DNA from: Takakia lepidozioides
Taxonomy: Eukaryota; Plantae; Bryophyta
NCBI GenBank assembly: GCA_030704615.1
Contig: CM060733.1
Span: forward strand, 40,548,001 to 40,612,000
Length of the DNA: 64,000 bases
Direction: 5' to 3'
The position numbers and the translations under genes are program-made. The notes beneath the pieces were generated by a model. That model made no database searches. It saw only the letters and a list, made by a program, of their open reading frames with translations, and was not told the DNA's origin. Of this stretch, positions 5,318-35,819 are shown one piece after another; positions within the stretch are counted from its first letter, which is position 1, and every line of letters begins with the position of its first letter.

Positions 5318-7763
5318 GCATCCTATTTTCCATCCATACCGGATGAAAAATGCCAGGATATTAATTTGATCATTCCTCTTTTATTGCCTTTTTCATCCGT
5401 ACCGGATGAGGCATTTTCGGGATGTTGAATTACCTGTAAGGATGTAAAACCGATGCCTTGGATGATATTTCCTATTTTTTCATCCTACTGATGGACTTTT
5501 TCCAACGGATGAACTCAATGATTTTTTTCATCTAAACCAGATGAAATGTACAGCTTTTGATGGCCCTGGACTGATATTAATTACCCCTAATTATGGTGAG
5601 TTAAGGTGTGAAACCCTAACCCCTACCCTAAAACCTATCGTTTAACCTAGCTACGGATGAAATCCATCAGGTTTTAATGGATGTGATGTTGATTGATAAA
5701 TCGGGCAAGTGCCCTAGGACGTCTCTCCCGCCGTCAGAAGCACGAGCAGTGCTTCTGAGCTCGCGGGGAGAGCGTTATGGCGTTTGCGTTTGCTGCTCCC
5801 CTGTTTGCTGCATCGTACCCGTGCGGGGCAATCTCCTGGGGATGCGCAATGGCGGCGCTTTGTTTTTCTTACAGGCGGGAGACAATGCTGTGAATACATC
5901 GTCTCTTTCCCTCCTCTGGCTTTTAATTTTTGCAGCGGCGCTTGTGTTGGGAAGTATCTCTCTCCTCTTCTTAAACCCAGCAAGTGTGCTTGTATGCTTC
6001 ACTTCTCCTTTGCTTTGCTGGAGGTGGCTTGCTGGTGGTGATGGCGCACAGTTCTCTTCCCCAATCGCTCAAGGTGCTTTTGGTGATTAGGGTTCAATTT
6101 TTTTTGTTTTATGTCTTTCTCTCTTGCTTTTGAGGTTCTTAGTTGACATCGATGACAAGTGTAGGGGTCTGTGATTCAACTGGGGTTCCACAATCCTCAC
6201 TAACCTGTTGGTTTTTGTGGGGGCTTGTGATGGGACCAGGTGAGGATCCCTACTTGCTTTGAATTCTCTTGAGCTTGCAGATAAGGATGTGGGCAAAGGG
6301 AACCTATTGTGTATGACGACTTTACTTGGCTGCTGCCTGCAGCCCCGATTTCGGCCCGCTTGCTCCTGGTTTGGCATGCTGATGCTTACTTTTGACTTAT
6401 GTTTTGCTGCCTTTGATGGAGCACTTCGGCCTGACAGGCTTGTCTCTTGAAGCCCAACATCTGGCCCTTACCTTGTCTTGAATCTTTGATAGTAGTGCCT
6501 GTGGATTATTAAGCTAGGTACTGTTTTTGCCTTGAAAGAGGAGTTGTGTTTTATGGGTAAGGCCTCAATGGCTGTTAGGTTCTAAGGAAGAGGAGGCCCT
6601 GTTTTTTAAGATGGCAGCCTGATAAGGCAATGACATGCCTCTTTCAGGCCTGAATCTTGTGTGGAATGGAGCATAGTGAGGCTTATTTGCAAACCCTGGC
6701 ATAAGCCTTCTGTAAAATAGTGTTGGTAAGCTTTACTGAACCTTTGCCAGAGATTATTAGCCTTCTCTTGCCATTAGACCAGTCACCTGCAATGTTTGAT
6801 TTATTTTTTGGCCAAGTGGGCTTGGTCTCGGGCACTCAAGATGTTTGTGTGTCCATATCTTGAATCTGTAATATGGCAGGCCGTTCTTCCATGCCCAAGA
6901 TGCCTTGCATGATGCATGTCTTGGGGCAATTATGAATGGTATAGAATGAGGCTGCAATCGGTCTTGTCATACCCAAGAGGTTTACTTGGTTGCATGTTTG
7001 GAATCTGAAAAACTGCAGGCTGGTCCATCAAGATGCTTGTGTATACAGGTCTTGAATCTGTAGTATGGCAGGCTGTTCTTACTTACCCAAGGGGCCTTGC
7101 ATGATGCATGTCTTGGGGTTATTACAAATGGTAAAGAATGAGGCTGCAATATGCTTTGTCATGCCCAAGAGGGTTACTTGGTTGCATGCTTGGAATTTGA
7201 TAAACTACAGGTTGGTCCATCAAGATGCTTGTGTATACATATCTTGAATCTGTAATATGGCAGGCTGTTCTTACTTGCCCAAGATACCTTGCATGATGCA
7301 TGTCTTGGGGTAATACTGATAAGGTAACTGCAAATTATTTTGTCATACCCAAGATGTTTGCTAGAAGGGCATGTCTTGAATCTGTAATATTGCAGGCTGG
7401 TTTCACATACCCAAGATGTTTTGCTCTATGCATGTCTTGTTGTAATTGTGATGCCAAGAAAGGGTATGACAGGCTGCAACAATCTGATTTTTCAATACAC
7501 AAGATGCTTGCTTATATGCTTGTCTTGTTGTCATGACATGTACATAAACAAACCCCTCCCTCCCACCCTGTTTTATCATGAATGATTGGGTGAAATCAAT
7601 TGGGAAGTCATGACAAGAATGGAAGTGTTAGATGGTGCCATGTTTATGGGCTGTTTATGTCTTTAATTGACAATAACCCTAGTGGGTCTTGTCCATGTCT
7701 TGACATAACATGAGTATCTTCCCTCTCTCTTTTTAACTTTTTCTACCCCCTCTCTCCCTCTGC

Positions 7764-7796
<33 letters not shown>

Positions 7797-10282: not shown

Positions 10283-12810
10283 CATGAGAGGGAGAGATCA
10301 GGAAACTTAAAAAAAAAAAATGTGGGGGGGGGGGGGGAGTGACTGAGCAGCTCCTCAGTCACTCCCCCCCATTTTATTTATTTATTTTTATTTTTCCTTT
10401 GATGTCCCTCTCTTCTCTGTCTCCCTCTCTCCTAGGAACTGGCATGTTGTTATCAGTATTGATTTCTTGTTCTTTCACCCATACTGGATGAAGTTTGATA
10501 GAGTTTCATCCATCCACTATCGGTTTTTCATCCATACCGGATGAGCCACCAGGATGGACACTGAATTACCGTTAGGATGATTTCTGGTTTTTTCATTCAT
10601 CTTTTATTGACTCTCATCCATACCGGATGAGTCACCAAGGAATGAAAAATTACCTCTATGAGGGTTGCCAACAACATCCTGTTTTTCATCCATACCGGAT
10701 GAAAAACTACCAGGATAATAATTTTTCATTCCTCTTTCATTGACTCTTTTTCATCCATACCGGGTGGTCTGGTGAGGAATGATGAATTACCTAGGTGGAG
10801 GTAAACCGCTGCCACGGATGATATACCCTAATTTTCATCCTGACAAGTGATCTGTTTATGGATGACGAGTACAGATGATTATGGCCTGGAATTGATCTTA
10901 ACTACCCCTAATTATGATTAATTACGGGGTGAAACCCTAACCCCTACCCTAAAACCTATTTTTAACTCTGCTATGGATGAAATCCGTCAGGTTAGAAGGA
11001 TGTTTTTTTACTGTTTTTCATCCTTCACGGATGAAAAATCGGGCCAGAAAAACCCTACGTTGTCTCTCCCGCTGTCAGAAGCACGAGATGTGCTTCTGAG
11101 CTCGCGGGGAGAGTGTTACGGCGGGCATGCTTTGGTGGCCGCCCCGTTTGTGGTGTCGTACCCGTGCTGGGCGAGCGCTTGGGATGCGTAAAGGCGGCGC
11201 CTTGTCTCTCTAGCAGCGGAAAACACTGTTGTGAATGCAGTGACATCTTCCCTCCTCTGGCTTTTAATTTTAGAAGTGGCATTTATGCTCGGAAGTCTCT
11301 CTCCCTCCCTTCTATTGCCTTGCAAGTTTGCCTGCTTTGCTTCATTGCTCATGTGCTTTGTGGAGGTGACTTGCCGCGGGTGGTGATGGTGCATAACCCT
11401 CTTCCCCAATCGCTTAAGGTGCCTTTGGAGTTTAGGGATCCTTGTGTTCTTATCTTCTTCACTTGCTTTTGAGATTCTTAGTTGACATCGATGACAAGTG
11501 CATGAGGGTCTGTGATTCACCTGGGGTTCCACAATCCTCACTAATCCGTTGATTTTGTGGGGGCTTGTGATGGGACCAGGTGAGGATCCTCACTTACTTT
11601 GAAATTTCTTGAGCATGCAGTTGGGGATATGGGCTGAGAAGACCTGTAAGTTATCGCGCCTTGAAGTGGCTGCTGCCTGTAGCCCCGAATTCAACCCGAT
11701 TGCTCCTGGTTTGGCATGCTACAACCTATATTTTGGCTTTTGTTTAGCCGTCGATGGGGCAGCTCGACCTGTCTGGCCTGTCTCCTGAGACCTACATACA
11801 GACCATACCCTATCTTTTGATCCTTGACAGCAGGGCATGTGGATTAATGAGCTAGGTTGTAATTTCTTTGGGCCATAGAGGATCTGGTTTTATGGGGGAC
11901 TTCCTCGGCGGGTTTGGGACTCTATGGACGTGGTGGTCTTGAATGTTATGGCGGCAGCCTGATAAGGCACCGACCTGCTCCTTTTTGGGCATGTTTCTGA
12001 TGTGTAATGGATCATAGTGAGGTGTTCTTTGCAAGCTTTAGCATGGACCTCTTGAAGGATGAGGATGGTAAGCTGTAATGGAGTCCTACCTATAGTTTTG
12101 GCCTTGTCATGACATCAAGCCTATGACCTGCAATCTGAGTTTTTTATGTGCCAAAGAGGCTGGATCTCGGCTGTTCAAGTTGCTTGTGTGTACAAGTCTT
12201 GAAGTTGCAATTTGATAGGTTGAATTCACATTCCCTTGACACCTTGTATGATTACATGTCTCGGGGTGAATACAAATGGTATGGAATCTATTTCATCATG
12301 CCCAAGTAGGATTGCTTGGAGGCATGTTTTGATTCTGAAAAATTGCAGGCTGGTCCTTATGCCTTGGCTGATGCATGACCTGCTGTAATTAAAGGCTGAT
12401 AAGATAAGATGCTGCAACCTGTATGTCATGCCCAAGGTGTATGTTTGAAAACGTGTCTTGAAATGGTAATAGGGCAGGCTGGACCATGGTACCTTTCCCT
12501 TTGCATGACCTCAGCACTTTGTGCTCTTTCAATACATGACCTACAGGTAAGGCATGTGGGCAGGCTGAACCAAGATGCTTTGAAACTTGCATGTAGGCAA
12601 CAATATCTTATCTTATCCCACACAAGAACGAACCCCGCCCTCCCACCCTGTTTTATCATGAATGATTGGGTGATGTCAATTGGGAAGCTATGACAAGAAT
12701 GTAAATGTTAGATGGTGCCCTGTTTTGGGCTGTTTATGTCAATAATTGACAATGACCTAAGTAGGGTCTTGTCCATGTCTTGACATTACATGAATATCTT
12801 CCCACTCTCT

Positions 12811-17490: not shown

Positions 17491-17681
17491 AAGATTTTTT
17501 TTAAAGAAAAATCTGAACAAATGATGGGTTTTTTTCACACATGCCGCGACCTGTTTGGGGTCGCATAGGCAATTAATGGTTAAAGAAAGAGTAGCCATTT
17601 ATTTCTCACTAGCCAGCAAAGATTTAGGGCTAGATGATTACCTCATAATCCTTTAGCATAATATAACCATAGTGAAGGTTA

Positions 17682-18111
17682 TGTCATGGTTTTAGTCATG
17701 GTTATCTAGAATTACCTACTTCTAGTTAACTAGGACATTTTAGATATTTATATTTATATTTTGTGTGTTGGGACTTCATTTGGTCTCACATGCCAAGTGA
17801 GGTGTCGAGCCTCACTTGAGACATGGAGATAGGTTTTCCCCTTGTGAGTGTTGAGGAGGCTCATCTTCTTGTAGTTGAGCCTCCATGAGCTTCTCTCACC
17901 TCCATAGCTCTAGGTATTGAGAGGGAATGTGTTGAGGGCTTTGTAGGGTGGATTCCTTTAGCAAAGGTGCCCTTGGCTTGACTTAGTTTATGTGATAGAG
18001 TGGATTTCACTTGGAAGGACTAGGGCTTGTTCTTCATGTGATTGCTTCATGCTTGAGAGCTTTCATTGTCTTCTACTTCTCTCATTTCTCATCTCTTATC
18101 ACTACAAGAAG
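17682..18111 (+). repeat. 5' LTR (segment shared with the 3' LTR)
   Basis: Matches 34704-35132 with about 5 transitions and 2 small indels by manual comparison. Confidence 0.92.
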
Positions 18112-19399
18112 ATCACCTTATGCTTGTGAGTGTGGAGTGTAAGGATTAGTTTTGCACTTGTATTTTAAAGAGGTTGAGAGCTAGGAGAATTTAGCTCTTG
18201 TATCACAAGGCTTGCAAGGGGTTGCAAGGAAAGGTGCTCGAGTATTGCATGCACCAAGGAGTTGGAGAGCTTGAGAAGAAAGCTCTTGAGTTACAAGATT
18301 TTGCAAGGATTGTAAGGAGGAAGTCTTGCGTGTGTGGAAGCATGGATTCTAGGGTTTGAGAATCCTTTGTATGCATTATGGAGTCGATGGTGTGCGCCAT
18401 GGCTTGTGGAGAGTGACTAAAGGCTTGTTAGTGCTCATTTCACTATCAAGCTAGGGTTAAGCAAGTTCAAAGTGTGGATGTTGTGGAAGAGAAGCCAAGG
18501 AGCTATATATGCTTGGGCTTGAAGAGGCAAGCACTTGGAGAGCACTAAGAAGCTCAAGAGGTTTTGAAAGGGAGCATGTGAAGAAATCTTCCAATCATGG
18601 TGGTGTGGAGCCAAGCTTAGGGTGCCATTGGAAGGGCTTGGAGAACATGTGGTGGGAAATCCTTGAAGGGAAATCATCATTCAATGTATGCATAACTTCA
18701 CCCTAACTATGTAATGTGACAAGAGGGGGAGGCAATACTTGGCTATTCATGCTCTTGGTAGTGCGAGCTTTGTGGTAGATAGTTGACCAAGCAAGTGGTG
18801 CATGTGTGGAGCATGTTCGCTTGAGTTTGTAAGTTCAAGTTTGAGAAGGGGAGCTCTTGAACTAGCAAGAGATGAAGGCCTTTGAGATCCATTTGTGTGT
18901 GAAGTGGAGAGGTGTTGATTCATGTTATGATGAAGGAGAGCAACACATAGGCCAAGAGGTCATGAAACATGCATTCAAATGACCACGAGGAGCACATGGA
19001 TGATGGATTGGTGCAAGACCCCAAATGAGGCATATGGCGTGAGAGTGGGATCCAAGGCGGATTGCTTGGGAGCATTATTGTAGGTGACAAGCATTGCTCC
19101 TACACATTGAGATAATTTGTGTTGATTTGGAGCAATTGTCAAGTGATGAGGAGACAAATGTATGATTGCTCGGCAATGGAGATATGGTAGTTTGCAATCA
19201 AATCCCAAGGACTAGAAAGGGGATTGATTTGGTGGACAATGACTTGCAAGTTGAGTTGGACCACTCTTGGTTGCACATTGGGGTGGAAGAGAGCAAGAAG
19301 ATGCCTCTTATGACCACCTAGAGACCATATTTTTGCTTGAGTAGAAGCATAGAAGTCAAGGACTTGCATTCTAGCTCTTCATTATAAACCCTAGTAGTG

Positions 19400-19800
19400 T
19401 ATGCTCAGACTATACCTCTGTTAGTATACCAAACAGGAGCTTGTCCCTTTGACTATACCTCTGTTGAGGTATCACCATATGTGAACCCTAATGTGAGACT
19501 ATACCTTTGTTAGTATACCAAACATGAGCTTGTCCATTTTTCTATACCTCTATTGAGGTATCACCATATGTGAACCCTAATCAGCTCAGACTATACCTCT
19601 GTTAGTATACCAAACAGGAGCTTGTCCCTTTTACTATACCTCTGTTGAGGTATCACCATATGTGGACCCTAATCAGCTCAGACTATACCTCTGTTAGTAT
19701 ACCAAACAGAACCCTCATTTTCAGACTATACCTCTGTAAAGGTATCATCAACGTAAGGGACCCTAGCAACCTCAGACTATACCTCTGTTAAGGTATCAAC
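19400..19800 (+). repeat. Tandem repeat (~90 bp unit made of two ~45 bp halves) in the Gypsy 5' untranslated region
   Basis: ACTATACCTCTGTT-type core repeated about 9 times, followed mostly alternately by AGTATACCAAAC and GAGGTATCACC. Confidence 0.9.
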
Positions 19801-20613
19801 AGTGAAAGGACTTAGTGAAATTTAAGGGCCTTTGGAGGATTGTTTGGAAGATATTTGAGGGCCCTTGGAAGAGTATTTGGAGGATCTTTGGGGTCCTTAG
19901 AGGAGTGTTTGGAGGATCTTTGGGGTCCTTGGAGGACCCTTCGAGGAGCTTTGGTGGACAATGTTGAAGAGCTCTTGAAGGATTGATTGAGGGATATTGA
20001 AGGATACTTGCCACGGCCATACAAGCGAGTGGATAGAGACAGGAGGGAGAGTGGTGGGATGAGAGCATTCTGGGGTTAGGAATTGCTTTAGTTTCTCTTT
20101 TCCATAGTCTTTCACCCTCTCTGTAGGCCAAAACCTTTCCGTAGGTGGAGGCAAGAGTCAGTCCGGGTTTGGGCTGGGGTGTCCTTGCAGGAGCGACACT
20201 GTGGAGTGTTTTTGGTGTGGGGGAGTTGCTGTCTTGATTTTCTTGTGTTTGGATCTCCTCCACGCCTGCATGCTTGACTGTGCGCCATGTTAGCTTTATG
20301 TGGGCGTTTGTTTTCATAGGAGGTTGGTCCGGATTTGATCACTGGCCAATCCTAGAGTATGCTGTCGGTGGTGAGGCTGGAGTGATGACCAGCAAGACCA
20401 CCAGTGTTTCTTCTATGGTGAGGCTGGGTTGATGACCAGCAGACCATAGGAGTGTTTGCGGTGGATGCAGGTGCAGGTACAGGTCTACGTTAGAAACCTA
20501 TTATTCCTGCTTGAACCAGTAGCCGCAACAAGTTCTTTACCCGGTTACCTTGTAGAAAGTGGGGATTAGAGACAGGTTGACAACCGGTTGGGTTGTGAGT
20601 TTTCATCACGGAG

Positions 20614-22614
20614 GTGCCACTAGCTGCTGAGGGGAGTGCCGGTACAAGCACCAGCGATACTAGTGGGTACACAAGACAAGGTGTGCGGTTTAGGCCACGT
20701 TCACCTTCAGTGTCTTCTAAGGAAGGTTCAGACTCGGAGTCAGGAGGATTCTCGCCGAGGGTGCAAGTCATTTCCGTGCCATTGTTGTGGGACACGATGG
20801 AGGAGACGTATGGAGCTACCAAGGGGCCACGTAGGTACTCTGGAGCTGTGGGCACCATCGAGCTTGATGACTTTATACAAGAGTTTGACAGTTGGCGTGA
20901 TTTGCAGCAAATGCGCAATCCACAATTGTTTACGCCCTTTATGGCGTGGAAGGGGCTATTCCAGCACCTTGAGGGGCCGCCCATGGATGATTACCATGAA
21001 TTTAGGCGGGGACATGCGGTGGAGATTGAGGAGTGGCGAGAGTATTGGTCACCTAACTATGTCTCAATTACTAGAGGCACAAGGGCAGCGGTGACACCAA
21101 CAGCTACACAAATATCTCCAACTACAAGCACTAGTAGTGAAACAAGTAGTGCCGACACTTCTGCAGGTGGTACCAGTTCAAAAGGTGCTACTACTCCTCC
21201 TGCCACAATTACAACACATGTGCCTAGATTCAACCCGGTGGTGGAGTTCTTCCAGGAGTTGCGGAGGAACTACCAAGGTGTACGGACAGAGAAGCTGCGA
21301 AGTTTGCAAGACTTCCAACGCAAATCCAGTGAGAGCTTGCGAGAGGCCTACACTCGTATGAGGCGCTTGATAAGTGTGACCCAAGGGGTTACTGAAGCTC
21401 AGGCAGTCCAGTTCTGGTATGGAATTTTGGACAAGGAGCTCAAGAGAAGGGTGCGGGATGCAACCCTGTTACAAGCGGCCCAACCCACATTAGCGGATGT
21501 GTTTCTGCTGGCTGAATGGATTGAGCTCAACATGGTGGAGGAGCGAGTTGTTACCATTGGATTTGGCAAGGACATGCCTGCACGAGGTGCAGCTGCCAGC
21601 CCACAGACACAAGGGACTGCCCAACAGCGTGGTCAGGGGGGCAAGGTTTCCCAACCCAAGTTCCATGGAGCTTACAGGGGACCTCAGGTGCAGAGGCCCG
21701 TGGCATCTTTTGCAGGCCAACAACAACCAGGGGTGATATGTTGGACATGTGGAGGACCCCATGTCAAGAGAGATTGCCCAGAGAGTGGCAGAAGGCCGGC
21801 ACAAGCACAGCCTGCACAGTTGCAGTGTGGGCATTGTGGCAAGTATGGGCATGGAGATGCCTAGTGTTATGATTTGCATCCTGAGTTGCGCCCAGGCCAG
21901 TTCCAAGGGAACAATGGTGACCGGGGGCAAGGTGGACCAGTCCAGAGAGGACGAGGTGGTCGGGCACGAGGTGCAGGCCAAGGGCAAGCTCAACATGGCC
22001 AAGGACGCGGAGGTCAGGGTGTTGACCAAGACATGGCCAACCGGCTTTAGCAGCTAGAGTAGAGGCTCGATGCTATGGCTACAGCTCAGGTGGAACCGGC
22101 TCCCAGGCGGGATGGTCCACCTCCTGCTCCTGAGGGAGGAGATATGGGAGGCATGGGATTCATGTGTGGAGCGGCACTACCACTGGTGCAGGTGGAGTCT
22201 GCTGCAGCCGTGACTCGAGGAGCAGCACGAGTTCCTGAGCCACGAGGTGCAGAGGTGGAATTGGATCCACAGCGTGGGGAGGCAAGCCGTCAGGTGAGGC
22301 TTCCTCAGTCATTCACATTGGCGGAGACAGTGTCGACCCCATCCATGGCATCTAGTTCTCGCCCGACTGTTACCGAGGCGGAGGTTACTATGCCATTGGG
22401 GAGAGCTACACGTGCAGCACTAACACCTGCTACCAAGGCTAGTGCAACCGGTGTGTTATTGGGGGCAGCCACCTCTGTGTGTCAAGCCCCACTGTTCTCG
22501 GCAACCATGATTGTGACGCCGGGGGTAAGACCAGCTGCAGTGTTCAGACTAGCAACAACACTCTGCGAGAGTGGGAGGTCACTTCATCTTCTGCGGAGTT
22601 ACTGGAAGTTGTAG
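20614..22614 (+). pseudogene. gag: Retrotransposon gag with two zinc knuckles (two in-frame TAG stops)
   Basis: Capsid-like QRKSSESLREAYTRMRRL…QFWYGIL; knuckles CWTCGGPHVKRDC and CGHCGKYGHGDA*C. ORFs 20614-21864 and 22075-22614 share a frame. Confidence 0.88.
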
Positions 22615-23369
22615 TGGCAGAGGGATCCTCGGATTTGAGGGTCACAACTACCACGGCTGCGCCATGGCAAGCTGCAGCTACAAGGTTGACGGAGCTGCCA
22701 GCTAGGCCAGCCTTTGAGCGCGCCATGGTGACACCTGGAGTTGTCTTGTTAGACAACCAGGGAGACATTTTCACTTTGAGTGGACCGGTAGGCAAGAAGT
22801 ACCGGCCACTGCGGGTCTTGTTGGACTCAGGAGCTCAGCCACTGATGTTGGGCAGAGCTGCTATTGCAGGTTTGGGCCTCATGGAGGCGGATATAGAGCC
22901 TTGTCCTTTCCAGATACAGACATCTCTGGGAGGATCAGAGCAGGCTCGGGGCATGACACGACGTGAATTGGCCATTGGACTACAACCAGATCATCCTGTA
23001 GATGGCTCAGTGATGCAAGCCAAGGCCATTGTGACAGACGCGGTCTCTTACGATGTCCTTGTTGGTGGGGCAGTGTTATATCCCATGGGTTTCACCCTGG
23101 ACTTTTGGGAGGAGTCAGCATCCTACAGGCCTGGATGGCAGTCAGGGGATGGTCGTCGTGCACAGCTCCTTGTGACATTCATTGGGGGTATTGCGGCTAC
23201 CCAGCGGGGCAAGATGCCAATACTAGCCGCCTTTACAGCTGTAGTTAGTTGGCTTGGAGAGTTGCTGGAAGACAATGCCCATGCAGAGGATGTGCCACCT
23301 CCAGCAGAGCAGGATGACATGCATGGTACGGCGGAGTTGCCTACCATGGTTGCTCACACTCCATTATAG
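22479..23369 (+). CDS. Retropepsin-like aspartic protease region of pol
   Basis: VLLDSGAQ catalytic motif and YDVLVGGAVL closing motif. Confidence 0.88.
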   Translation: MSSPTVLGNHDCDAGGKTSCSVQTSNNTLREWEVTSSSAELLEVVVAEGSSDLRVTTTTAAPWQAAATRLTELPARPAFERAMVTPGVVLLDNQGDIFTLSGPVGKKYRPLRVLLDSGAQPLMLGRAAIAGLGLMEADIEPCPFQIQTSLGGSEQARGMTRRELAIGLQPDHPVDGSVMQAKAIVTDAVSYDVLVGGAVLYPMGFTLDFWEESASYRPGWQSGDGRRAQLLVTFIGGIAATQRGKMPILAAFTAVVSWLGELLEDNAHAEDVPPPAEQDDMHGTAELPTMVAHTPL

Positions 23370-23384
23370 GGTACGAGCAAGGAT

Positions 23385-24785
23385 TTGCAGCAGGCTGCTG
23401 ATGGACGGGTACAACAAGCCTGGGTAGAGGCCTTCGTACCGTCAGGAGAAGAGGAGAGTGTGGTGATTGCACTAGGACCACCTCAGTTGTCGCCATCGGA
23501 CACCACACCTCTTGTGTGGCAGTGCCCGGATGAAGGCATATGCCTTCTGGACTTGTTTGGCGGGATCAGCACTGGATTGGCTGCAGTACTGCAGGCAGGT
23601 ATACAAGTTCGACGTTACCTGTATGTGGAGAGGGATGAGACTGCACGACGCGTCTCACTATGCCATGTTGCTCAGTTGGTACAGCAGTACCCTGATTTGT
23701 TGCCAGTGTCTGCAGTTCGTGGATACCAACAAGCCTTGCCAGCAGACATTTCGTTGCTGGGGGTGCAGGATTTGGAGCGGGTTGGCTCCATTGATCTGGT
23801 AGTGGCAGGTTGGCCCTGCCAAGGGCATTCATCAGCCGGGCATGGCAATGGATTGCGAGACTCGAGGACAGGTCTGTTTTGGGAGATGGTGCGGATTTTG
23901 CGCCACTTGCAGCTTCATCAAGCTGTATCTCCAGCATACATCTTGGAGAATGTGCCACTGATGGGTGATTCTCGGGCCAAGGTGATGGCCAGTGTGCATC
24001 AAGTCCGGTCATGGCTTGGGTCAGCAGTGTTGCTGGATGCAGCTGCAGTGGGGTCATGGGCTCATCGTCCACGGCTATGGTGGACTAACTTGATGCCACC
24101 CGCACTGCTCAAGCGTGCATTTGATGGGGTGCAGCGGCCAGCACACCTCACAGTGGATAGCATTTTGGACACAGGGAGGCAGTCTCAACGTGTGAGACAC
24201 GATGACCGTTCGCCTTTGGCAGTGGTCAATAGGGTGGGTCAACCACGAGCAACATTACCTACACTGCTCAGCTTCCCAGGATCCCATGCTTTTCTGGATG
24301 GTGGACCTGGCCTCTTGTGGGATAGCCAATTGCAACAATTAGTGGAGCCCAATGCTGACGAGCGCGAGCGGGCGATGGGTTTTACCACAGGTACCACGGC
24401 GGTGCCATCTCTTTCTGAGGCATCACGTCGTCAGGTGTTGGGGCAAGCAATGGATCTCAACTTGACCTGGATTATCAGCTTGGCTATGGTTGAGCAGCGC
24501 AGAGTACGGAGTACACTTCCTTTCATGGTCTCCTTGCCTACCGAGACGGTACAGGCAGCGAGTGGGGGCGAGCAGGTGAGGACCACGAGGTGCAGGCCGC
24601 ATCCATGGCACACATGGGAGGTGCTCGAGGTTCAGAAGGAGTTGGCAGCCAAGGCGGCGGTAATGGATCAGGTTGGGGATTTTTCTCGGATTGAGGAGGT
24701 CCTCAAGGATGGGATGATGGGGCAGGATGAGACATTGTCACTGACAGAGGAGGTAGTGGTCACTGCTCAAGAGGTTGCAGCATAG
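23385..24785 (+). CDS. DNMT3-like C5-cytosine DNA methyltransferase domain inside the Gypsy pol (domain ~23541-24460)
   Basis: Motifs in canonical order: I LLDLFGGISTG, II RYLYVERD, IV DLVVAGWPCQGHS, VI YILENV, VIII AHRPRLWWTNL, IX ERERAMGF, X QVLGQAM. Same reading frame as PR upstream and the RT start downstream. Confidence 0.93.
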   Translation: MQQAADGRVQQAWVEAFVPSGEEESVVIALGPPQLSPSDTTPLVWQCPDEGICLLDLFGGISTGLAAVLQAGIQVRRYLYVERDETARRVSLCHVAQLVQQYPDLLPVSAVRGYQQALPADISLLGVQDLERVGSIDLVVAGWPCQGHSSAGHGNGLRDSRTGLFWEMVRILRHLQLHQAVSPAYILENVPLMGDSRAKVMASVHQVRSWLGSAVLLDAAAVGSWAHRPRLWWTNLMPPALLKRAFDGVQRPAHLTVDSILDTGRQSQRVRHDDRSPLAVVNRVGQPRATLPTLLSFPGSHAFLDGGPGLLWDSQLQQLVEPNADERERAMGFTTGTTAVPSLSEASRRQVLGQAMDLNLTWIISLAMVEQRRVRSTLPFMVSLPTETVQAASGGEQVRTTRCRPHPWHTWEVLEVQKELAAKAAVMDQVGDFSRIEEVLKDGMMGQDETLSLTEEVVVTAQEVAA

Positions 24786-24911
24786 CAACCACGGGACGCG
24801 TCTTCTACCTCTAAGCATGCTGGACTCAAGGTTGCAGTCACGGAGGACAACTGGGAGCCTGATGTTGGACCTATAGTCACCGGAGGAGAGAGACGACGTA
24901 TACGGCGGTTC

Positions 24912-25739
24912 TTGAGGGCTTACAGGAACTACTTTGCCTTCAGTTTGAAGGACTTAGGAGCACTGAAGGGTCAAGAGATTCGCATTGACTTGGCTACTGA
25001 CACGCCAATCTTTTGGAGACCCTATAGATACAGTGACACGGAGAGGTCCTTGATTCAGATGAGAACTCAGAACCTTTGGGAGGCTGGTTTGGTGGAGCTA
25101 TCTGGGGAGAGTATGCTTCAGCCACAGTGATGCCAGCCAAGAAGGATGTCTTTGGCAATTGGACGGAGAGACGTATGTGCGGTGATTACCGGCCTGTAAA
25201 TCGTCAGTCCAAGTCCGATATGTATGCCATGCCAACACTAGAGGAGATCTTTGATGCCATTGGGCATGCCAAGGTCTTTAGCACGTTGGCTTTACGATCC
25301 GGATATCACCGGTTGCCGATCAAGGAGGCGGATAAGCAAAAGACAGAATTCTGGGGGATCAATGAGCACGGGAAGGATTGCCTATACCAGTGGCGGTTCT
25401 TATCATTTGGGCTTAAGAACGCTCCGGCAGAGTTTCAGAGAGTCATGGACAAGATTCTAGCAGGGGTGGAGTTTGCTCGGTGCTACATAGATGACATCAT
25501 CATCTTTAGTGCTACGGTGGAAGAGCATGAGAGACACCTTCAGGGGGTATTTGAGCGCTTGAGGGCGCACGGATTGAAGTTACATCCGGGAAAGTGCAAG
25601 TTTTTCCACAACCAAATTAAGTATCTGGGTCACATGATATATCCTGGAGGATTGGGGGTACAACAGACTAAGGTAGAGTCCATTGCACAGGTTCCACGCC
25701 CCACGGATGTGAGCCGAGTTTGAGCTTTCATGGGGTTAG
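24912..25739 (+). pseudogene. Gypsy reverse transcriptase (one frameshift at ~25105, stop at 25721, then interrupted by CACTA)
   Basis: RMCGDYRPVN, FGLKNAPAEFQRVMD, CYIDDIIIFS, KCKFFHNQIKYLGH. Confidence 0.95.
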
Positions 25740-26589
25740 CACTAGAAGCATTTGTGTCTTTTCCGAATCGACTGCATGTCCAAAACCACTGAGGGAACAA
25801 CTTTGAGATGTTTGTTACTACTGCATAGTCGTAACGGATAAATTCACATTTCTAATGGCGGATAGAAGTTGCATCAATGACTCCGCAGTCGGCACAATAT
25901 TCGCGGCGATTTAATTCAATTACGTAAATTGTTTTTTTTTAAAAACAGCAATTACAAGTGGTTTTAAGCACTAGAGAGCGACTCTTAACAACTAGGCATT
26001 CATTGCACACCCTATTCAAAAATGGAATTTTTATAAGTGCTCCACATGGCTCATGACGTGGAATATTTTAATGTATTTTAGGGCTTGTGTGGCTCGTAGA
26101 GATTGTTCTAATCGTCGGATGTAAAATGATCTAAGGGTGGAAGAGTAACTTTGTCCTTTGCCTAAATTTGTCTAAGTGTTGGGAGAGGGATGGAGGCTTG
26201 AGAGAGAGACGAACAAGTGATGCGAGAAGGACGAAGACCAAATCGAGGCCCATGTCCTATTGTCGCAAGCGTTTATGGCGTCAAGGGCGCATTATGTGCA
26301 AATGTGGGCTCTTGGCTCCCCTTTGTACCATGATTTGGTATTCTTCCTGATGATCACAAGGTTCTTGGGGGAATCAGCTTGGTCTTAGCAACCCATATTT
26401 TAATCTCTGCCCGCTCAGCTGCACCGTGGTGGTTCTTACGAACCAATCCCACATTACCTGACTAGAGATACAAGCAGCACGCACAAGAGGTCTTCTTGGG
26501 TTCATGGTCAGTCTAATCCGCAATGGGTCATGACACAAGGTAGAGGACAATGTGGTGAGGGCACCTTCTTCTTCGAGCTATTTCAGCCT

Positions 26590-27403
26590 GTTTTGCCGAG
26601 ATGTAGTGTCGTGGAGTGCGATGCTTGCAGGGTATGCACAGCAGGGACGTGGGATGGAGGCTTTGGAGACCTATGAAGTTGCGAAGGGAGAGTTTGATAA
26701 CATGGCTGAACAAGATGTTGTCTCAAGGAACACGCTGAATCTTGCAAGATATGGCCAGCATGTGTGCGGGATGAGGGCATTGGAGACATATGAGCAAATG
26801 TTGAGAAGAGGTGCAGCCTGACCGGGTCACGTTCATTTGTGTTTGCAATGCATGTGCAAACCTGGCAGCCCTGGAGACTTGGTAAAGGGCAAAGGGTCCA
26901 TCGTGACATTGTCAAAGCTGGAACTGTACCAGATGTAACAATACCTCGTCGACATGTATGCCAAACGTGGGAGCATTCCCTTGTGGACAAGGAGTGTTTA
27001 ACAATATGGCTGAGCGAAATGTGGTGTGGTGAAACGTGATGATCGCAGGACATGCACAACATGGGCGGGGATTGCGGGTTTTGGAGACCTATGAGCAAAT
27101 GATGTGGGTCTAGGGGGTGAAGCCCGAGCACATTACGTTTGTTTGTGTTTGTAGTGCATATGTGAGCCTGTTGGAGAAGGGCAAAGAGGTCCATGGTTGC
27201 ATCGTCAAAGCTGGAATTGTGGTAGATGTCATTCTGAACATGAATACCTTCTAGATAGGGAGTGTTCAACAATATGGCTGAGCGAAATGTGGTGTCGTGG
27301 AAAGTGATGATCGCAGGACATGCACAACAGGGGCGGGGATTGTAGGTTTTGGAGACCTATGAGCAGTTGATGTGGGAGGGGGTGAAGTCCGACCACATTA
27401 CGT
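26590..27403 (+). pseudogene. Scrambled PLS-class PPR gene fragments carried by the CACTA (resuming at 30078-30222)
   Basis: RDVVSWSAMLAGYAQQGRGMEALETYE, (P)DRVTFICVCNACANLAALE and GQRVHRDIVKAG, with many frameshifts. Confidence 0.88.
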
Positions 27404-30222
27404 TCAGAGAGTTCAAATGCCTCTCCACCATGACCTTGCTTAGCTAACCATGCCTTGCTGATGTTGTTGTCTTGCACTTGAGCTGTTTTTGGACACTGGC
27501 TGGAACATCCACAAGGCGGCTCTGCTCGAGAGAGAAATCAGCTTGAATGCAGGGGCAGATTTTGAGATCACAATCGCCACTTAGAACGTTGTTCTTTGCA
27601 CCGGCATGGCATATCAACATGCATATCAGCCCAAACTCATTACTCCGTGAGCCTTCCACTGCCGGAGTGTGCCCATTCAAGCCAGATCTTCGAAACGCAG
27701 GGATGGAACGGGGTTTTGAAACCAGCATTGCCTAATTGGATACCCAATTCAGCTCTGCATCTTGGTCCATTAATCTGCTGCACATTGTGAAGTTTTCTGC
27801 CCGTTCACCGCAAGTTGAAGAAGGAGTATTCTTAAAACACGGGTACTCATAATCTGAAAATGGCTCCAGCTTACGTTGCTTGAGTGCAAATATGAGTGTG
27901 GTTGGCTTGGCAGCTTTACATCTGGTCCATCCCACTCGATATGATGAGCAGGTTCAGCTTGACTTCTCTCACACAAAAGACGCTGCCAAGATGGGGTTTG
28001 TTGCCCTAGATGACTTCCCGTCGTTGTTCTGGGCTGCAACATACAATTAATCTGGCCCATGGCGAGGGGCCTTGCCTTCCACCAATCATCTGTAAGTCCT
28101 GTGAAACTATTTTTGTGGCAGTTTGTAAGCAGTGGGCAGCAATGGTGGGCTGTTGTAGGATTTGATGAACTCAATGCTGTGTATTGACAGCAACCCCTCA
28201 TCTCTTATGCAAGCATTCAACAAGCCAAGTTGACTGCAGAGCATATTCAGCCCCCCGCGTTTCTAGTTGCCTAATGTTCTTCATCTCCTGGGTAGAGCAT
28301 TTTCTAGGGTCTCCATCTGTGATGACACACTATCTTCTCATGTGGTTCAGCTTCTGGTCTTGCTCTTGTTTGCACCACCCCAATGAAGGGCAGTTCCCAC
28401 CTGCTTGATTTTTCTCTATATGGTTGTCTTGGGTCTTGGCAGGGTTTCCCACAACCGCCTTTCCTTTTCAGACTGCCAGTCATCAGCCTCGTTCTCCAAT
28501 GCTTCACTTTCTTCCCAAGTGAAGTGCTCTCCTCTTTTATGCTTCAACGTCCCTGCATGTGTCTTTTCCTTCATGTGGTGCTTTCGAATGAATGAGCACT
28601 GATTTACATCTGTTGGCAACACTTACGGTGTCCCTTTCCTTGCATGCCACTGCAGGCCCGCATTGACTTTCTTGGCAGGGAAGTCTCCTCCTTCTCCCTC
28701 ATTTTCTGGCTCTGTTGGTGCCCCACTCACCATGCTATCAGGGCTGCACTTATTTTGTGGTGTTGCGCCAGCCAAGGGCGATCTTTCACTGGTCCGATTG
28801 TTGGCAACAGCTGATTGGAGTCTTCTTGGCAGAGTCTCCCACGAGCTCCCATCAATTTCAGGCATCAGGTTTTCTACCCTGCCCTTCCACTTTTCATAAG
28901 CGAGGTGCCTGTCTTCCTCCCTTTCACTCTTCAGCCTCTCAGGCAGATTTTTCTTCATGCGATTGCTGCTCCCATACTTCCAGTCCTTGTTTAATTTTCT
29001 CCAGCCATCACCCTCAGATTTGACAAGGTATTGCTGCCATTCCTTGTGTCTTTCCTCACTCCCAGCTGCTGGTTTTATCCCAGATTTACCTCTCATCCTT
29101 GCCTGGGGTTTTGCTTGCCAAACAGCCCTTGTGTGGGGAACTTCAACGAAAGGCAACATCTCATTCTCAGCTCCTGTCTTTGTACCTCTTTGCAGCAGTC
29201 CAGCCTCGGGTGCCTCACTTTCTGATTGCTGGGTGCATTCTTTGCCGCCAACCTTTGACAAGAAAGTGTGCTCCATCTTCCTCATCTCCTACTGGTTCCC
29301 TTGATGCTTCACCTCGTATGTCTTCCTCCTCATGTTTTAGCAGCAGCTCCCATGCTTGAATTGCTACTTTTCCTCGTAGTTGATCTTGTGCTTTCTTTTT
29401 CTCCGTAGCTAATCAACAGTTTTGTCTTGGCAGCTCCCTTGCCATGAGTGCCTTGTCTCACTGCATCTCCCTTGGCTGCCCACCATCCGTGGAGTCTTTC
29501 TTGCACTATTCTGACCCTCGTTGGCATGCACTTTGCTGCGATGCCCCACATGTATTTGTGCTCCCTTTAATCATCAACATAGTGCTCCAGAGCCAGTTCC
29601 TCATTGTTGACCAGTTGACCTTCTCAGCCCTTGGACCCCATTTTCCCTTCTCCCATGTTGCCTCGTCTTTCTGCTTCATCATTTGCTTTACTTGCACGAT
29701 GTTGCTTCTTCCCTACAGCTCATCATGTGTTGTGGCTCTTTCCCATGTTGCACTCACTCCCATCATACGTTGTGCAGTTGATAAGACTGAGATGAGTTGA
29801 TGCAGGATAGGGGGAGGGCTTGCTGGTGTATGTTGTCCGATAGGCCCCATGCACAGAGTCAAAGCTGGAAGTCAGCCTTGCAAGGACCCAAGTGAGAGAA
29901 GTCTGGTGGGGGTAGCATCTTGGGGGATGGCAGTTAGGGCAATGTGTGTCTAGGGCAATATATGTCATAGCAGCGGGTGATGTGCTGCCAATTTTGAGGA
30001 TAGAGACAGCCTGTAAGCTGTAGATTTGTATAAGTGGTTTCTTCTGACACATATTGCTCCCAGTTTGCCACAACTAGTTGTTTGCGTTTGTAGTGCATGT
30101 GCGAGCCTGCTGGGGAAGGGCAAAGAGGTCCATGGTTGCATCGTCAAAGCTGGAATTGTGGCAATGTCATTCTGAACAATACCCTTGTGGACAGGGAGTG
30201 TTCAACAATATGGCTGAGCGAA

Positions 30223-31325
30223 GGATAGAGTGTAATGACTGCTAATGAAGGCACCTTCTTCAATTTCACCTTGTTTTCCCCTCTTATCAGAATCGCCCAT
30301 AATTATTCATGTCTGAATTCTGCAAGTTAGCTGGTTGAGTGAAGCTTTGATAGTTTGGAGTGACTTTGACATGATTCTGCCAATGTGACAACAGGAAAGT
30401 ATCAGAAACAGGTAACACAGACGAGGAGAAGTTGTGGAATGAATATTTTTCTGACCCCAGTCAATGGTGGGACAATCGAGGCAAGAAGGTGAATGTTTGT
30501 TGGATTATAGAGAGTAGCAGATGCAATTGAGCGTAGGAACTAGTGTGATAAGTTGAGTTGGGTGCTTCCTAGAACAAGTCTAGGCTGTCATCGTCAACTG
30601 CTAGCAACAAGGCAAGGTTGTATGCATGATTCGTGCGAGGCATGGATAGTTGAAGGAGCAAGGATAGAGTGTGGGTGCAGATTCACCCAAGAGGGCCAGA
30701 CTTCAAGCTCCAGATTAACTATGAAGCTACAAGAAACCTGCATGGGTAGATGGTCAACTGGCAGCAACGGCACAATTGATAAAATCAGACATTGTTAATG
30801 AAGGCATCTTCTTCAGCACATTTCACCCTGTTTTTCCCTCTTATTAGAATCGGTCCAAAATTTCCATGTTGAATTATGCAAGTTAACTGGTTGAGTGAAT
30901 CTAGTTTGGAGTGACTTTGACATGATACTGCTATGTGACAACAGGAAAGTATCAAAAAACAAGTAATAGACATGAGGAGAAGCTGTGGAATGAATACTTT
31001 TCTGCCCCCAGTCAATGATGGGACAACCGAGGCAAAAAGGTGAATGCCTGCTACATTTCAGAGAGTAGCAGACGCAATTGAGCATATGAACTAGTGTGAT
31101 AAGCTGAGTTGGGTGTTTCCTAGAACAAATGTAGGTTGTTTTTGTCAGCTACTAGCAGCAAGGCAAAGATGAATGCATGATTTGTGCAGGGGCATGGATA
31201 GCTGAAGGAGCAGGGATAGAGTGTGGTCCAGATTCATCCTAGAGGACCAAATTTCAAGCAAAAGATTTACCTATGATTCCCTGTGGATCAATAACTACAA
31301 GAAACCTCCATGGGTAGATGGTCTA
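30223..31325 (+). repeat. Two copies of a ~550 bp repeat, also present as about 4-5 partial or full copies at 51330-53910
   Basis: Shared landmarks GAAGGCAYCTTCTTC, TAGTTTGGAGTGACTTTGACATGAT, GAACTAGTGTGATAAG and CATGGGTAGATGGT. Confidence 0.85.
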
Positions 31326-32176
31326 TTCCGTGGAACTCACTGAAGTCTTGCATTATGAGGATCAGAACTGCTTGACTTGCACGAGGCCTTGATCCTTAGG
31401 CAATCCCCAGAGCAGCAGTAGCTTTTGGGCTGCTTTTTTACTTTGTGTTTTTCATTTTGTCCCATAAGCTCTTTGAGCTTTCCGCAGATGTTATAAAGTA
31501 CCATTTTGTTTCATTTCATTCATTTTCATTTCATTTTGTTTCATGGCATGTCTTTCATCGTTTGTGCATTTCTAATGCATGATTAGTTCTCTTGTATGGC
31601 ATTACTAGTCGACTCACTACAAACACCGAAACTCCAAAGCATGAATCACTATGAATGATTGTTCAAGTAATTTCGAACACTTCATGTAAAGTAGTAAAGC
31701 AGTGGTTGCGCCAACTTCCGCAGTCGCAATTGCCACTGGGCATGTAACACTGCAAGTTATGTGGTCTACTACCACGTGGTGCCCCGGGCCCGTGGCCACG
31801 TGGCAGCAGTGGTGCTCGTCGTGGCGCCGCCACGTCGGCATCCACATCGTCGTCCACGTCCGCGTCCATGTGTCACCGCGCTTCAGTGAGTCGGTCCACT
31901 CATCCGGAGGGAAAAGTCAAAGTCAGCCCAAAAGGTCAGACACACGGGCGGCCCGCCTGGTTACGCCACGTGGTTCTTCAGCATTAATCGCATTAATCGC
32001 TGAGCAGTTGTTCGCGCGTCTGCGTCCTTTACCACTCCAATCATTGGATGTCCAACCCAACTACCACGTCTGTTGTAACTAGTCTGTTGTAACTTCCAGT
32101 CGATCCCAGTTTTTTGACTTTTACGACTCAAAATGAGTCGTTACCCCAGTGATAAATGACACGAATGGTTCTAGTG

Positions 32177-34359
32177 TAGCAAACTATTATAGACGGTTTG
32201 TTAAGGGATTTAGTGCCATTGCAAAGGCTCTAACCAAGCTGACCAAGGTGGACCAAGAGTGGCAGTGGGAAGGTGAGCAAGAACAAGCTTTTCAAGAGCT
32301 CAAGGCGAGGTTGACCTCGGCGCCCATCTTGAGACGACGTATCAGGGGGCGTCCTTTTCAGTTGCATACAGATTGGAGCATGCTGGGGCTTGGAGCGGTG
32401 CTCACACACGTGGATGATGAGGGAAGAGAGTTCGTAGTGGCTTATGCTAGCCGCTCGAACAACGTTGCAGAGTCTAAGTATAGCTCATATAAGGGAGAAT
32501 GCTTAGTTGCAGTGTGGGCCGTGGCACACTTCAGGTGCTATCTATACGGCAATCTCTTCACCCTTGTCACGGATCACCAACCACTCAAGTGGTTGATGGA
32601 GTCAGACAAGCTTACGGGAAAGCTTGCACGGTGGGCACTCATCCTTCAAGAGTATGACTTTCAGGTGGTGCATCGACCGGGTTTGGTCAATCGCAATGCA
32701 GATGGGTTGAGTCGCAATCCATGCACGAGCCAGCAGGATGACACTGGAGCTCGGTGGCATGGTGAGACGGACGAGGAGATGGTGCCCGGATGGCATGCAT
32801 CTGCATTTCTGTGTATCTTGGCAGCGGAAGGCCAGGTTGGACTTGCAACAGGAATGACTGTAGATCAAGTGTCTGAGGACCCTGAGGCCAGCAATGAGCA
32901 AGGTGGCGCCAAAGATATACATGAGGATTCAGTTGTGTTGGACTACCTCCGCACTGGAGCCACTGCAGCCACTGTGACTGCCAAGAAGAGGGATCGGATC
33001 CTACAACGAGCCAAGAGGTTAAAGTGGGAGGGGATACACCTGCTCCGAGTGTGGGAGGATGGTCGAGTGAGGATTGTGCCTCACCCAACACAGCGGGCAC
33101 GGTTAGTGCGGCATGCCCATGAGGAGTTGGGGCATTTTGGGGTGTGACGCACTCATAGTCTACTGTAGGGGCAGTATTGGTGGCGTGGTATGCACACAGA
33201 GGTGCAACAATTTGTGGCTAGGTGCATGGTGTGTGACAGGGTGCGTGCTTCATTCAACGCCCCTACTCCACAATTGCACCCTCTTCCGATCATGGGATTG
33301 GGCTACAGGTGGAGTCTTGACTTTGTAGGGCCGTTGCCACTGACCATGTGCCACAACAAGTACGTGTTGGTGATGGTGGAGCACTTCTCCAAGTGGATTG
33401 AATTGGTTCCATTGCCTGATAAGGCTAGTGAGGGAGCTGCGTATGCATTCTTGGATTGTGTGCTTAGCCGATTCGGTGCTCCAGCTGAGGTACTCACGGA
33501 CCAAGGGAGAGAGTTCTTGGGGGAGTTTCAGGTTTTGTGTGACAAGGCCTTGATAGACCACCGCACCACTTCTCGAGATCATCCTGAGGCCGATGGCTTG
33601 GCAGAGAGAGTTGTTCAGACAGTAAAGAGGGGTTTGCGCAAGTATGGCTTGCAAAAGGGACACCTAGGAGATTGGGACCTTTAGTTACCCTGGTTAGCCA
33701 TGGGCTACAGGTTCAGCAAGCAAGCATCACTTGCCTCCTTCTCACCATACTTTCTTCTCTTTGGCCGAGAGCCGGATTTGCCTACATCCATTCGCAGAGA
33801 AGCTGCTACAGTTCTTAGCCTTGACGATCCGGACGTGTGGGCACGGGCATGTGAGCAGCGTGCAGAGTTGTTCAAGAAAGTCATGCCCATGGCTTTCGAG
33901 AACCTTGCCATTGCACAACATCGTGATACATTGAGGTATGCTACCATACGTGGTGGGGGCTATCGTCCTGGTGTTCAGAGATTCAACCCTGGTGACTATG
34001 TCTATCTGCAGCAGACTGCTCCTACGACATTGGATGTGACTGCAGGACGTGTTATTTTGAGGGTTCGAGAGGTTTTGTCCTCAGGCGTCTTGGTCTTGGA
34101 GGGTCGGGATGGCATAACTTGGAAGGACCATGTGCGTAATTGTGCGCCATGTCACCTTCCGAATGTCGATGGCAGGATTGACCCAAACCTGGCAGTGATA
34201 TCTGCAAGTTTGAAATGCATGTTGTGTGGGTCTGCTAGAGGGGCAGCCACCATGCTGGTGTGTGATCGATGCTCTAGAGGTTGGCATATGTGATGCTTGA
34301 CTCCACCTCTTGAGATGGTTCCTGATGGGGATTGGTTATGTCCGTATTGCATTGGATAG
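32177..34359 (+). pseudogene. Gypsy pol C-terminal part: RNase H, integrase and C-terminal PHD finger (several in-frame stops)
   Basis: RH: LHTDWS, LVTDHQPL, NADGLSR. INT: HEELGH…CMVC, WSLDFVGPL, VLTDQGREF, GLAERVVQT. PHD: CMLC…LVCDRCSRGWHM*CLTPPLEMVPDGDWLCPYC (34216-34350). Confidence 0.93.
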
Positions 34360-34605
34360 TGGGAGTGGATACAACCATGGAAGGCTAACAAGAAATGCAA
34401 GGCCAAGGTACTAGGAGACCAACACACGAGATCCTGACTCAAGTTCACAGATTGCAAGACGGCGACTAACGATGGGGTTGCTCTTGTACCCAGCCTCTTG
34501 GTCTATAGAGTTTGAGTACAATAGGGACAGTGATAGAGGACTTAGTACGGTTGTGGCTATTACATCTTGTAGCTATCTGGAGTTAGAGGGACCTAACCAC
34601 CAGCT

Positions 34606-34615
34606 AGGGGGGCGA
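34606..34615 (+). other. Candidate polypurine tract
   Basis: AGGGGGGCGA followed by T and then TGTGG, ~90 bp upstream of the 3' direct repeat. Confidence 0.55.
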
Positions 34616-34703
34616 TTGTGGTATAGCTTTCTAGGATTATGTGCTTAGATTGTGTGGTGGACAGCGATGTATGTTGTGGCACGATGCTTAGGTGCACGAC
34701 AGC

Positions 34704-35146
34704 TGTCATGGTTTTAGTCATGGTTATCTAGAATTACCTACTTTTAGTTAACTAGGACATTTTAGATATTTATATTTATATTTTGTGTGTTGGGACTTCA
34801 TTTGGTCTCACATGCCAAGTGAGGTGTCGAGCCTCACTTGAGACATGGAGATAGGTTTTCCCCTTGAGTGTTGAGGAGGCTCATCTTCTTGTAGTTGAGC
34901 CTCCATGAGCTTCTCTCACCTCCATAGCTCTAGGTATTGAGAGGGAGTGTGTTGAGGGCTTTGTAGGGTGGATTCTTTTAGCAAAGGTGCCCTTGGCTTG
35001 ACTTAGTTTATGTGATAAAGTGGATTTCACTTGGAAGGACTAGGGCTTGTTCTTCATGTGATTGCTTCATGCTTTGAGAGCTTTCATTGTCTTCTACTTC
35101 TCTCATTTCTCATCTCTTACCACTACAAGAAGTGAAGTGCACGACA
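34704..35146 (+). repeat. 3' LTR
   Basis: TGTCATG…CACGACA followed by the TSD GTTA. The first 429 bp match the 5' copy. Confidence 0.9.
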
Positions 35147-35819
35147 GTTATTATTCTTCCTTAGGATAGCTGTCATAAAGTCTCTCAGGCACCTAGCCCA
35201 ATCGTGACAATAGGATTTGGCTCATGATTGCCTATATTTTCTTCAATCTAGGTTTCCCTGGATCTAAAAACTAGCACTTCGCAAGTTTTTCTATGAAGAC
35301 TCAAAGTGATCGAGTCCACATGTCTACCAATTCCGCCATGCCCCCTTTTGTCTATGAAAGCAGGGCCAGGTAGCCATAGGAGCTCCCAAACCCGACACAC
35401 TTATGGGCTATGACTCCAAATATCAAATAACAAATAAGATATGTAAGTAGCTTTTCACTCCCACACTCACAATTTAGAAGCTCGTCACAGTTTGGTCAAC
35501 AATGCATTTAACAATATCACTCTCCCGCACTACTCTCATACTCTCATTCCCTTCACAGTTAACAACATCCTTCCTTATCAGTACTTCACCACCATTCCCA
35601 CACATTCTATATCCTCTCATCATAAAATGCCACAACAAACTATATATTTAAAAATTAATGTTTTTCTTAAAAATAATTCATTGCTGAATGTTACACGAAA
35701 TCATGTAATCATAATATGTCATAAATGCTAGTTACAAAATGAGTGGTTAAATCAACGCCAATTTTCCATCTAATTATAAAAAATACAATCAGAATCAAGT
35801 AGTTAAAACAACTCATAAT

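Follow-up and report, generated by a model that had tools for sequence, protein, structure and literature searches.

In animals, the ADD domain adjoins and regulates the catalytic domain of DNMT3, and it reads H3K4me0. A DNMT3-like domain is also known from a retrotransposon of the green lineage: KnitGypsy-Dnmt3, described from one charophyte, Klebsormidium nitens, combines a Ty3/Gypsy Pol with an intronless DNMT3-like domain and DIRS-like split repeats (PMC5890265), and the name "Gypsy-DNMT3 of streptophytes" is in use (bioRxiv 10.64898/2026.05.21.726589). As for the ends of KnitGypsy-Dnmt3, the legend goes no further than "same as a DIRS retrotransposon", the A1/B1/A2/B2 wording being found in the review file (PMC5890265). 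De Mendoza et al. proposed that the DNMT methylates the element's own cDNA, and in yeast the enzyme produced no de novo methylation, a result that the authors called inconclusive (PMC5890265). The text and three supplementary files of that paper, the domain map in Fig. 4c aside, do not mention a PHD finger.

PHD fingers in retrotransposons have been called widespread (PMC6673714) and have been surveyed (bioRxiv 10.1101/2021.11.30.470311). Gypsy-7a_cRei (PMC9940879) and REM1 (cited in PMC6673714 and PMC9940879) carry a PHD finger as an accessory domain of a green Gypsy polyprotein, and a role in guiding insertion has been proposed for it. The same job has been proposed for the chromodomain that follows the GPY/F-SH3 module in chromoviruses such as MAGGY, Tekay and Chlamyvir (PMC6317226). 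In the EpiLTRs, a histone reader and one or more DNA methyltransferases occur in one LTR element, namely a chromodomain, DAM and a DNMT4-related enzyme (bioRxiv 10.64898/2026.05.21.726589). In the literature covered, with figures, Repbase, theses, subscription papers and bioRxiv supplements outside its scope, we found no text on a PHD finger and DNMT3 in one Gypsy element, and none that places the Gypsy-DNMT3 clade in chlorophytes or land plants.

The window (the whole stretch of 64,000 nucleotides of Takakia lepidozioides DNA that was analysed) holds an element of the Gypsy-DNMT3 kind, with a DNMT3-like domain inside a Ty3/Gypsy Pol (PR-DNMT-RT-RH-IN) and split direct repeats. The whole element spans 17682 to 35146 with a 4-bp target-site duplication, and its domain order, obtained with Pfam and, for the barrel, with a structural model, is gag, protease, DNMT, RT, RNase H, integrase, SH3-like barrel and PHD finger. 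Its features are as follows.

17678-17681 and 35147-35150: target-site duplication GTTA, 4 bp
17682..18111, plus strand: left terminal repeat A1, beginning TGTCATG (98% identity to A2, with 5 transitions over 428 bp; K2P 0.012)
20599..22440, plus strand: gag region, interrupted by stops, with Cys motifs resembling zinc knuckles (translation; Retrotrans_gag E 0.004, under the cut-off)
22731..23250, plus strand: aspartic protease, LLDSGA (gag-asp_proteas E 0.006; family profile matches)
23520..24500, plus strand: DNMT3-like C5 cytosine methyltransferase catalytic domain (PF00145 48 bits; DNMT3A the best of PDB, E 7e-11; motifs)
25157..25739, plus strand: reverse transcriptase, YIDD, past a frameshift near 25100 (RVT_1 E 8e-30)
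25740..32176: CACTA-type DNA transposon, CACTAG...CTAGTG, with a 3-bp duplication TAG, parting RT from RNase H (empty site in 4/4 runs)
32179..32730, plus strand: RNase H (RT_RNaseH E 4e-33)
33064..33790, plus strand: integrase H2C2 zinc finger and DDE core, with three in-frame stops (PF17921, PF00665)
33790..34190, plus strand: long helix of the integrase C-terminus, a GGYxP (GPY/F-like) motif and an SH3/Tudor-like barrel, with a conserved CxPCH at its end (model pLDDT 85)
34216..34350, plus strand: PHD finger, C4HC3 (Pfam, sequence relatives, pattern scan and fold match), with a TGA at 34291-34293 and the natural stop at 34357-34359
34572..34623, plus strand: conserved non-coding motif closing in a G-rich tract before repeat B1 (83-95% identity in 51/80 related loci)
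34616..34701, plus strand: repeat B1, the internal one of the split direct repeats (L022, L030 and L060 have it at a homologous position and with homologous ends)
34704..35146, plus strand: right repeat A2 (34704-35132) and a 10-bp remnant of B2 (35137-35146)

The ends deserve some explanation. The 430-bp repeats, at first doubted, were assigned to the element because a related locus (L022:1679-10797) shows the same layout, A1...B1 A2 B2, together with a 4-bp target duplication. Among the 18 long loci checked, A1/A2 pairs with B repeats were found in three (L022, L030 and L060); the split repeats are complete in these relatives, while in the window only 10 bp of B2 remain. In the three relatives, DIRS-like ends are thus coupled to an element with a DDE integrase. 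The 52-54-nt motif at 34572-34623 keeps its identity across loci while synonymous sites are near saturation; to judge from this conservation and its position, it is likely a plus-strand priming site, and it may be a priming or packaging signal of a split-repeat replication scheme. In the 5′ leader, a 90-bp unit is repeated in tandem about four times (19403-19790). The A1/A2 divergence is low and looks young, as against 167 sites in about 3 kb at which the window differs from the family at a share of at least 30% in run X1.

The gap of 10 kb between the DNMT and the PHD finger is mostly the 6,437-bp CACTA-type insertion between RT and RNase H. In 4/4 public runs, contigs depart from the window at 25741 and resume with the bases after the insertion. 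In run X6 (organism B), a contig of 5,009 nt joins 23227-25741 and 33600-34644 at the expected spacing, reading from DNMT to PHD uninterrupted; since this insertion-free contig spans both domains, the DNMT-like domain and the PHD finger belong to one element. The insertion itself contains broken PPR gene fragments (Pfam PPR), which recur at 48.6-53.9 kb and by which the host would probably be a land plant; it resembles a Pack-CACTA element, and the ORFs scanned in it gave no transposase. Elsewhere in the window, nested large inverted repeats with 801-bp arms at 96% and 192-bp tandem units lie at about 2900-12800, the three ORFs adjoining them (12.8-14.2 kb) having no Pfam match, and a 481-codon open frame, also without a Pfam match, lies on the minus strand at 61730-63175.

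The DNMT domain has DNMT3A/B as its best solved relatives, and motifs I (LDLFGG), IV (PC), VI (ENV) and VIII (RxR) are intact in the window. Among 173 aligned DNMT domains of the family, 98 keep ENV and RxR without the canonical PC, mostly as xC (WEC). Neither ADD nor PWWP was found beside the catalytic domain, Pfam giving only the protease and DNA_methylase in 22443-25130. The element resembles animal DNMT3 in that a DNMT3-type catalytic domain and a PHD-type finger occur in one translation product; it differs in that its finger, a canonical C4HC3 PHD, sits on the integrase and lies over 1,000 codons from the DNMT. From the EpiLTRs, it differs in having a PHD finger and a DNMT3-like enzyme. 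In Gypsy-7a, compared here by description, the legend puts the PHD before INT and shows no DNMT (PMC9940879), whereas in the window the PHD ends the integrase.

The original prediction described a complete C4HC3 pattern in frame after the integrase, with one TGA, and this was matched exactly in the translation (CMLC-x10-VCDRC-x3-WHM*C-LTPPL-x2-VPDGDWLCPYC): Cys1 begins at 34216, the final Cys closes at 34350, and all eight zinc ligands and the core Trp are present. With X placed at the stop, PF00628 scored 44.2 bits (E 1.9e-11; cut-off 24 bits) over its full length (1-47/47), so that the Pfam search proposed for it was positive. Across all six frames of the window the pattern turned up a single time, and it never appeared in 60 shuffles. 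The finger shares its frame with RNase H and integrase, and the TAG terminator follows it.

The TGA falls between the zinc His and Cys5. It is not the only lesion: three further in-frame stops lie in the integrase at 33145, 33166 and 33682, making four in the same frame. Since stops are found upstream of the finger too, it is the whole copy that is decayed and dead, and not the PHD alone. The TGA is not fixed in the family: another letter was found at 34291 in 614,732 of 617,098 summed contig depth in X1 (99.6%), in 490/496 in X5 and in all the covering depth in X6 and X9, where summed contig depth compares letters and is not used as copy number. The TGA is damage specific to the window's copy, and the finger is the normal C-terminal PHD of the integrase in a decayed Ty3/Gypsy element of the Gypsy-DNMT3 kind.

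With a stop in the finger and a dead element around it, one might regard the PHD as a non-functional passenger, or as a captured host fragment peculiar to this copy. The conservation data refute this reading, which we consider very improbable. When 80 metagenome loci were retrieved by the integrase core alone (74-87% identity, many being the same copies across several assemblies), 63 had the PHD, 4 lacked it despite enough flank and 13 ended too early; among 51 near-complete fingers, 3 had stops and 35 fitted the strict intact pattern. The zinc ligands are nearly invariant across 164 relatives. In comparisons across lineages, the PHD shows a dN well under its dS (0.067/1.29 for L056-L063; 0.21/1.09 for the window and L003), and the same is true of DNMT, RT and integrase. 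The median pN/pS of the PHD, a domain of only about 46 codons, was 0.39 versus 0.17-0.30 for DNMT, RT and integrase. These comparisons support a PHD that is conserved and under selection at the C-terminus of the integrase.

The residues of the finger give a clue to what it would read. At the cage-Trp position of H3K4me3 readers, two before the zinc His, Gly occurs in 155/164 relatives and in the window, and Trp in 0/164; judged by this position, the finger is not of the H3K4me3-reading type (ING2/BPTF/TAF3). The Asp after Cys3 is kept in 153/164 relatives and the aromatic residue (W/F) of PxGxW in 163/164, and both are present in the window. In KDM5B PHD1, D328 contacts H3R2, W351 lies in the interface, and a cage Trp marks the K4me3 readers (PMC4225485). 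By sequence, the nearest solved PHD relatives are CHD4, PHF12, KDM5A/B PHD1, ATXR5, DPF3, BHC80, BAZ2 and UHRF1. In the AlphaFold2 model of the integrase C-terminus and finger (mean pLDDT 85, pTM 0.48), the finger fits PHD fingers at rmsd 1.2-1.8, the ATXR5 PHD (Z 9.7, rmsd 1.6, 52 aligned) being tied with MOZ/MORF/DPF3 PHD2. Residues and modelled fold support the prediction that the finger is of the unmodified-H3-reading type (AIRE/BHC80/KDM5 PHD1/ATXR5).

The barrel that precedes the finger matches the Tudor domains of PHF19/PHF1 in the same model (Z 8.9, rmsd 1.6, 55 aligned). As a second methyl-lysine reader it was ruled out, conserved aromatic cage residues being absent despite the Tudor fold; a sequence search with the barrel gave no match, and we read it as the usual integrase C-terminal domain. 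At its end, the Cys of CAPCHL (about 34141-34158) is invariant in 64/64 aligned relatives with an adjacent His, and the motif is missing in the sub-clade without PHD; it may represent an additional metal site or help to pack the PHD.

A less certain point is the acidic residue that would bind K4. It was found at -2 to -4 from Cys1 in 92/150 pattern-matched relatives (about 60%; 14 were outside the pattern), and it is missing in the window's copy and in the close relatives shown. Because this acid is variable, and absent here, K4 selectivity may be weak. The PHD could then be a general nucleosome tether or protein-contact module, which binds H3A1/R2 irrespective of K4, or a host factor, without real site choice. 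The nearly invariant A1/R2 contacts agree with this, and the UHRF1 PHD, a fold match, has been solved with both unmodified and K4me3 H3 peptides according to the entry titles. However, KDM5B PHD1, whose surface is similar, shows a more than 15-fold drop in affinity for K4me3, partly through steric exclusion (PMC4225485), and thus selectivity need not depend on the acid before Cys1. We regard a tether blind to K4 as possible but rather doubtful.

The reading that we prefer, with a probability of roughly 0.6 on the basis of residues and model, is that the finger would grip the free H3 N-terminus and tether the intasome to nucleosomes lacking H3K4me3, away from active promoters. Processing by the protease would leave IN-SH3-PHD as a single protein, the Asp after Cys3 would take H3R2 and the Trp of PxGxW would take H3A1, as in KDM5B PHD1, and integration would be targeted so as to avoid active promoters. 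By analogy with the proposal for KnitGypsy-Dnmt3, the DNMT3-like domain would most likely act in a separate step, methylating the element's cDNA; if so, the two domains travel together by descent, with no mutual need.

To find relatives of the element, three protein searches were made, with integrase-PHD (best 120 of 259), DNMT alone (43 of 43) and RT-RNase H alone (best 120 of 2,474). Among the matches listed, 254 proteins were pooled, 201 of which have the whole RT-RH-IN, and one clade accounts for 147 of these 201 (support 0.957). Its named members come from Chlamydomonas, Haematococcus, Pleodorina, Tetrabaena, Astrephomene and Closterium, two Closterium proteins being placed inside it; no K. 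nitens protein is among the named matches, and KnitGypsy-Dnmt3 is likened to it by layout and description. The RT-RNase H search was dominated by multi-RT animal gene models, which serve as outgroups only. Since 120 proteins were found by a PHD-containing query, members without PHD are undercounted; with the DNMT-only query, the PHD was present in 32/32 matches that reach the integrase end, while 11 others stop earlier.

The original prediction placed the finger "in place of" a chromodomain. In terms of position, this holds: no PF00385 chromodomain was found in the RH-IN-PHD frame of the window or in the domain lists of the clade members examined, the one weak sub-threshold match (P0095) lying behind a second integrase fragment. 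Only in this sense does it hold: the few green references of chromovirus type, three in all (Oryza, Haematococcus), do not enclose the clade. The RT-RH tree sets it apart from them (SH-aLRT 99.3), as does the integrase tree, and the concatenated FastTree makes it sister to two of the three. The element differs from chromoviruses in its reader and, in the RT-RH tree with these few references, in its placement. Another retroelement in the window also has a possible chromatin reader: a broken non-LTR retrotransposon on the minus strand at 56420-61716, with RT, a weak chromodomain match (E 2e-4), RNase H and a C-terminal restriction-type-endonuclease-like motif. We take it to recall the Dualen/RandI LINEs of green algae.

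Among the matches listed, both domains occur in 118 of the 147 clade proteins, 117 having catalytic DNMT motifs and a PHD, and P0066 having a divergent finger. The PHD occurs with a decayed or absent DNMT in 22 (18 after setting aside 4 N-truncated, uninformative proteins), and the DNMT occurs without PHD in 7 (5 after setting aside 2 that are truncated or apparently frameshifted). With these 6 rows left out, parsimony places both domains at the clade root and requires, among the matches listed, that the DNMT was lost or decayed 5 times, that the PHD was lost once and that the DNMT moved once. At the DNA level, of 32 loci informative on both sides, 28 have both, 3 the PHD only and 1 the DNMT only. 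The PHD was lost in a sub-clade of Closterium and metagenome sequences in which the integrase is otherwise whole, and thus the finger is dispensable there. The DNMT moved once: it lies in the protease-RT slot in the window and in early branches (P0006, P0007, P0110, P0213), and between RNase H and integrase in a large chlorophyte-containing branch (P0009-P0248). In the sister group, P0249, P0250 and P0253 have a Dam adenine methylase along with a PHD inserted between RNase H and integrase, another layout of reader plus methylase.

The co-occurrence can be explained by one shared ancestor, the root state being both. Judged by the sequences compared, the pair is old, inherited and separable, and neither newly assembled nor obligate. 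The proposed check of co-occurrence across related Gypsy lineages found PHD and DNMT together in most relatives, the two being separable. The idea that this element may have independently assembled a histone reader and a DNMT is not supported, because parsimony traces both back to the root of the clade, to which chlorophytes as well as charophytes belong.

The same data bear on whether the two domains work as a coupled reader and writer, in which, in the manner of ADD, the PHD would recruit or activate the element's DNMT3 on H3K4me0 so that the new insertion or its flanks are methylated. Apart from the co-occurrence, one can point to purifying selection on both domains, to the specificity class of the finger, which by sequence is that of ADD, and to the 124 mid-position members listed in which the DNMT lies directly before IN-PHD. 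Nevertheless, the single ancestor accounts for the co-occurrence, and in the window's element the finger is on the integrase, with RT and RNase H between it and the DNMT. Each domain also persists alone: the 18 informative listed proteins in which the DNMT has decayed or is missing have an intact PHD (5 events), and the 5 listed proteins without PHD keep catalytic DNMT motifs (1 event). The negative, if inconclusive, yeast result (PMC5890265) is a further point against it, and on account of that result the "writer" role of the DNMT-like domain is unproven. We consider the coupled action unlikely, and the ADD-like pair originally envisaged is not upheld by this arrangement.

As for the tether away from H3K4me3, which remains the preferred reading, the retention of the PHD through 5 separate DNMT losses or decays among the matches listed counts in its favor, as does the report that a PHD-bearing Chlamydomonas Gypsy element inserts between genes 2.6x over chance, targeting and selection being unseparated there (PMC9940879). 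Counted against it are the acid before Cys1, which is found in only part of the relatives, the PHD loss in one sub-clade, and the chlorophyte branch, in which the DNMT lies between RNase H and integrase and could stay fused to IN-PHD.

The window contributes a single dead copy and no mechanism, and the pairing of PHD with DNMT is an old trait, common in a family already described in part, and no new invention. The useful gain lies in the clade, which is broad and has lost domains naturally. It seems improbable to us, from the sequences at hand, that a green-lineage-wide Gypsy clade carries its own H3K4me0 reader and DNMT3 for joint use, the PHD docking the intasome and the DNMT3 methylating the new copy or its flanks on arrival; if true, the logic of animal ADD-DNMT3 would have been rebuilt in a transposon, and TE-made methylation would be added to plant genomes. 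PHD-guided integration has been proposed for twenty years and stated only as a possibility in the sources cited here (PMC6673714, PMC9940879), and the clade offers natural contrasts for it: PHD with and without DNMT, DNMT without PHD, and DNMT in two positions. Finally, the range of Gypsy-DNMT3 is widened from one charophyte to chlorophytes, through named chlorophyte and Closterium proteins, and to a very abundant land-plant family, and such a wide family could inflate DNMT3 gene counts in plant annotations.
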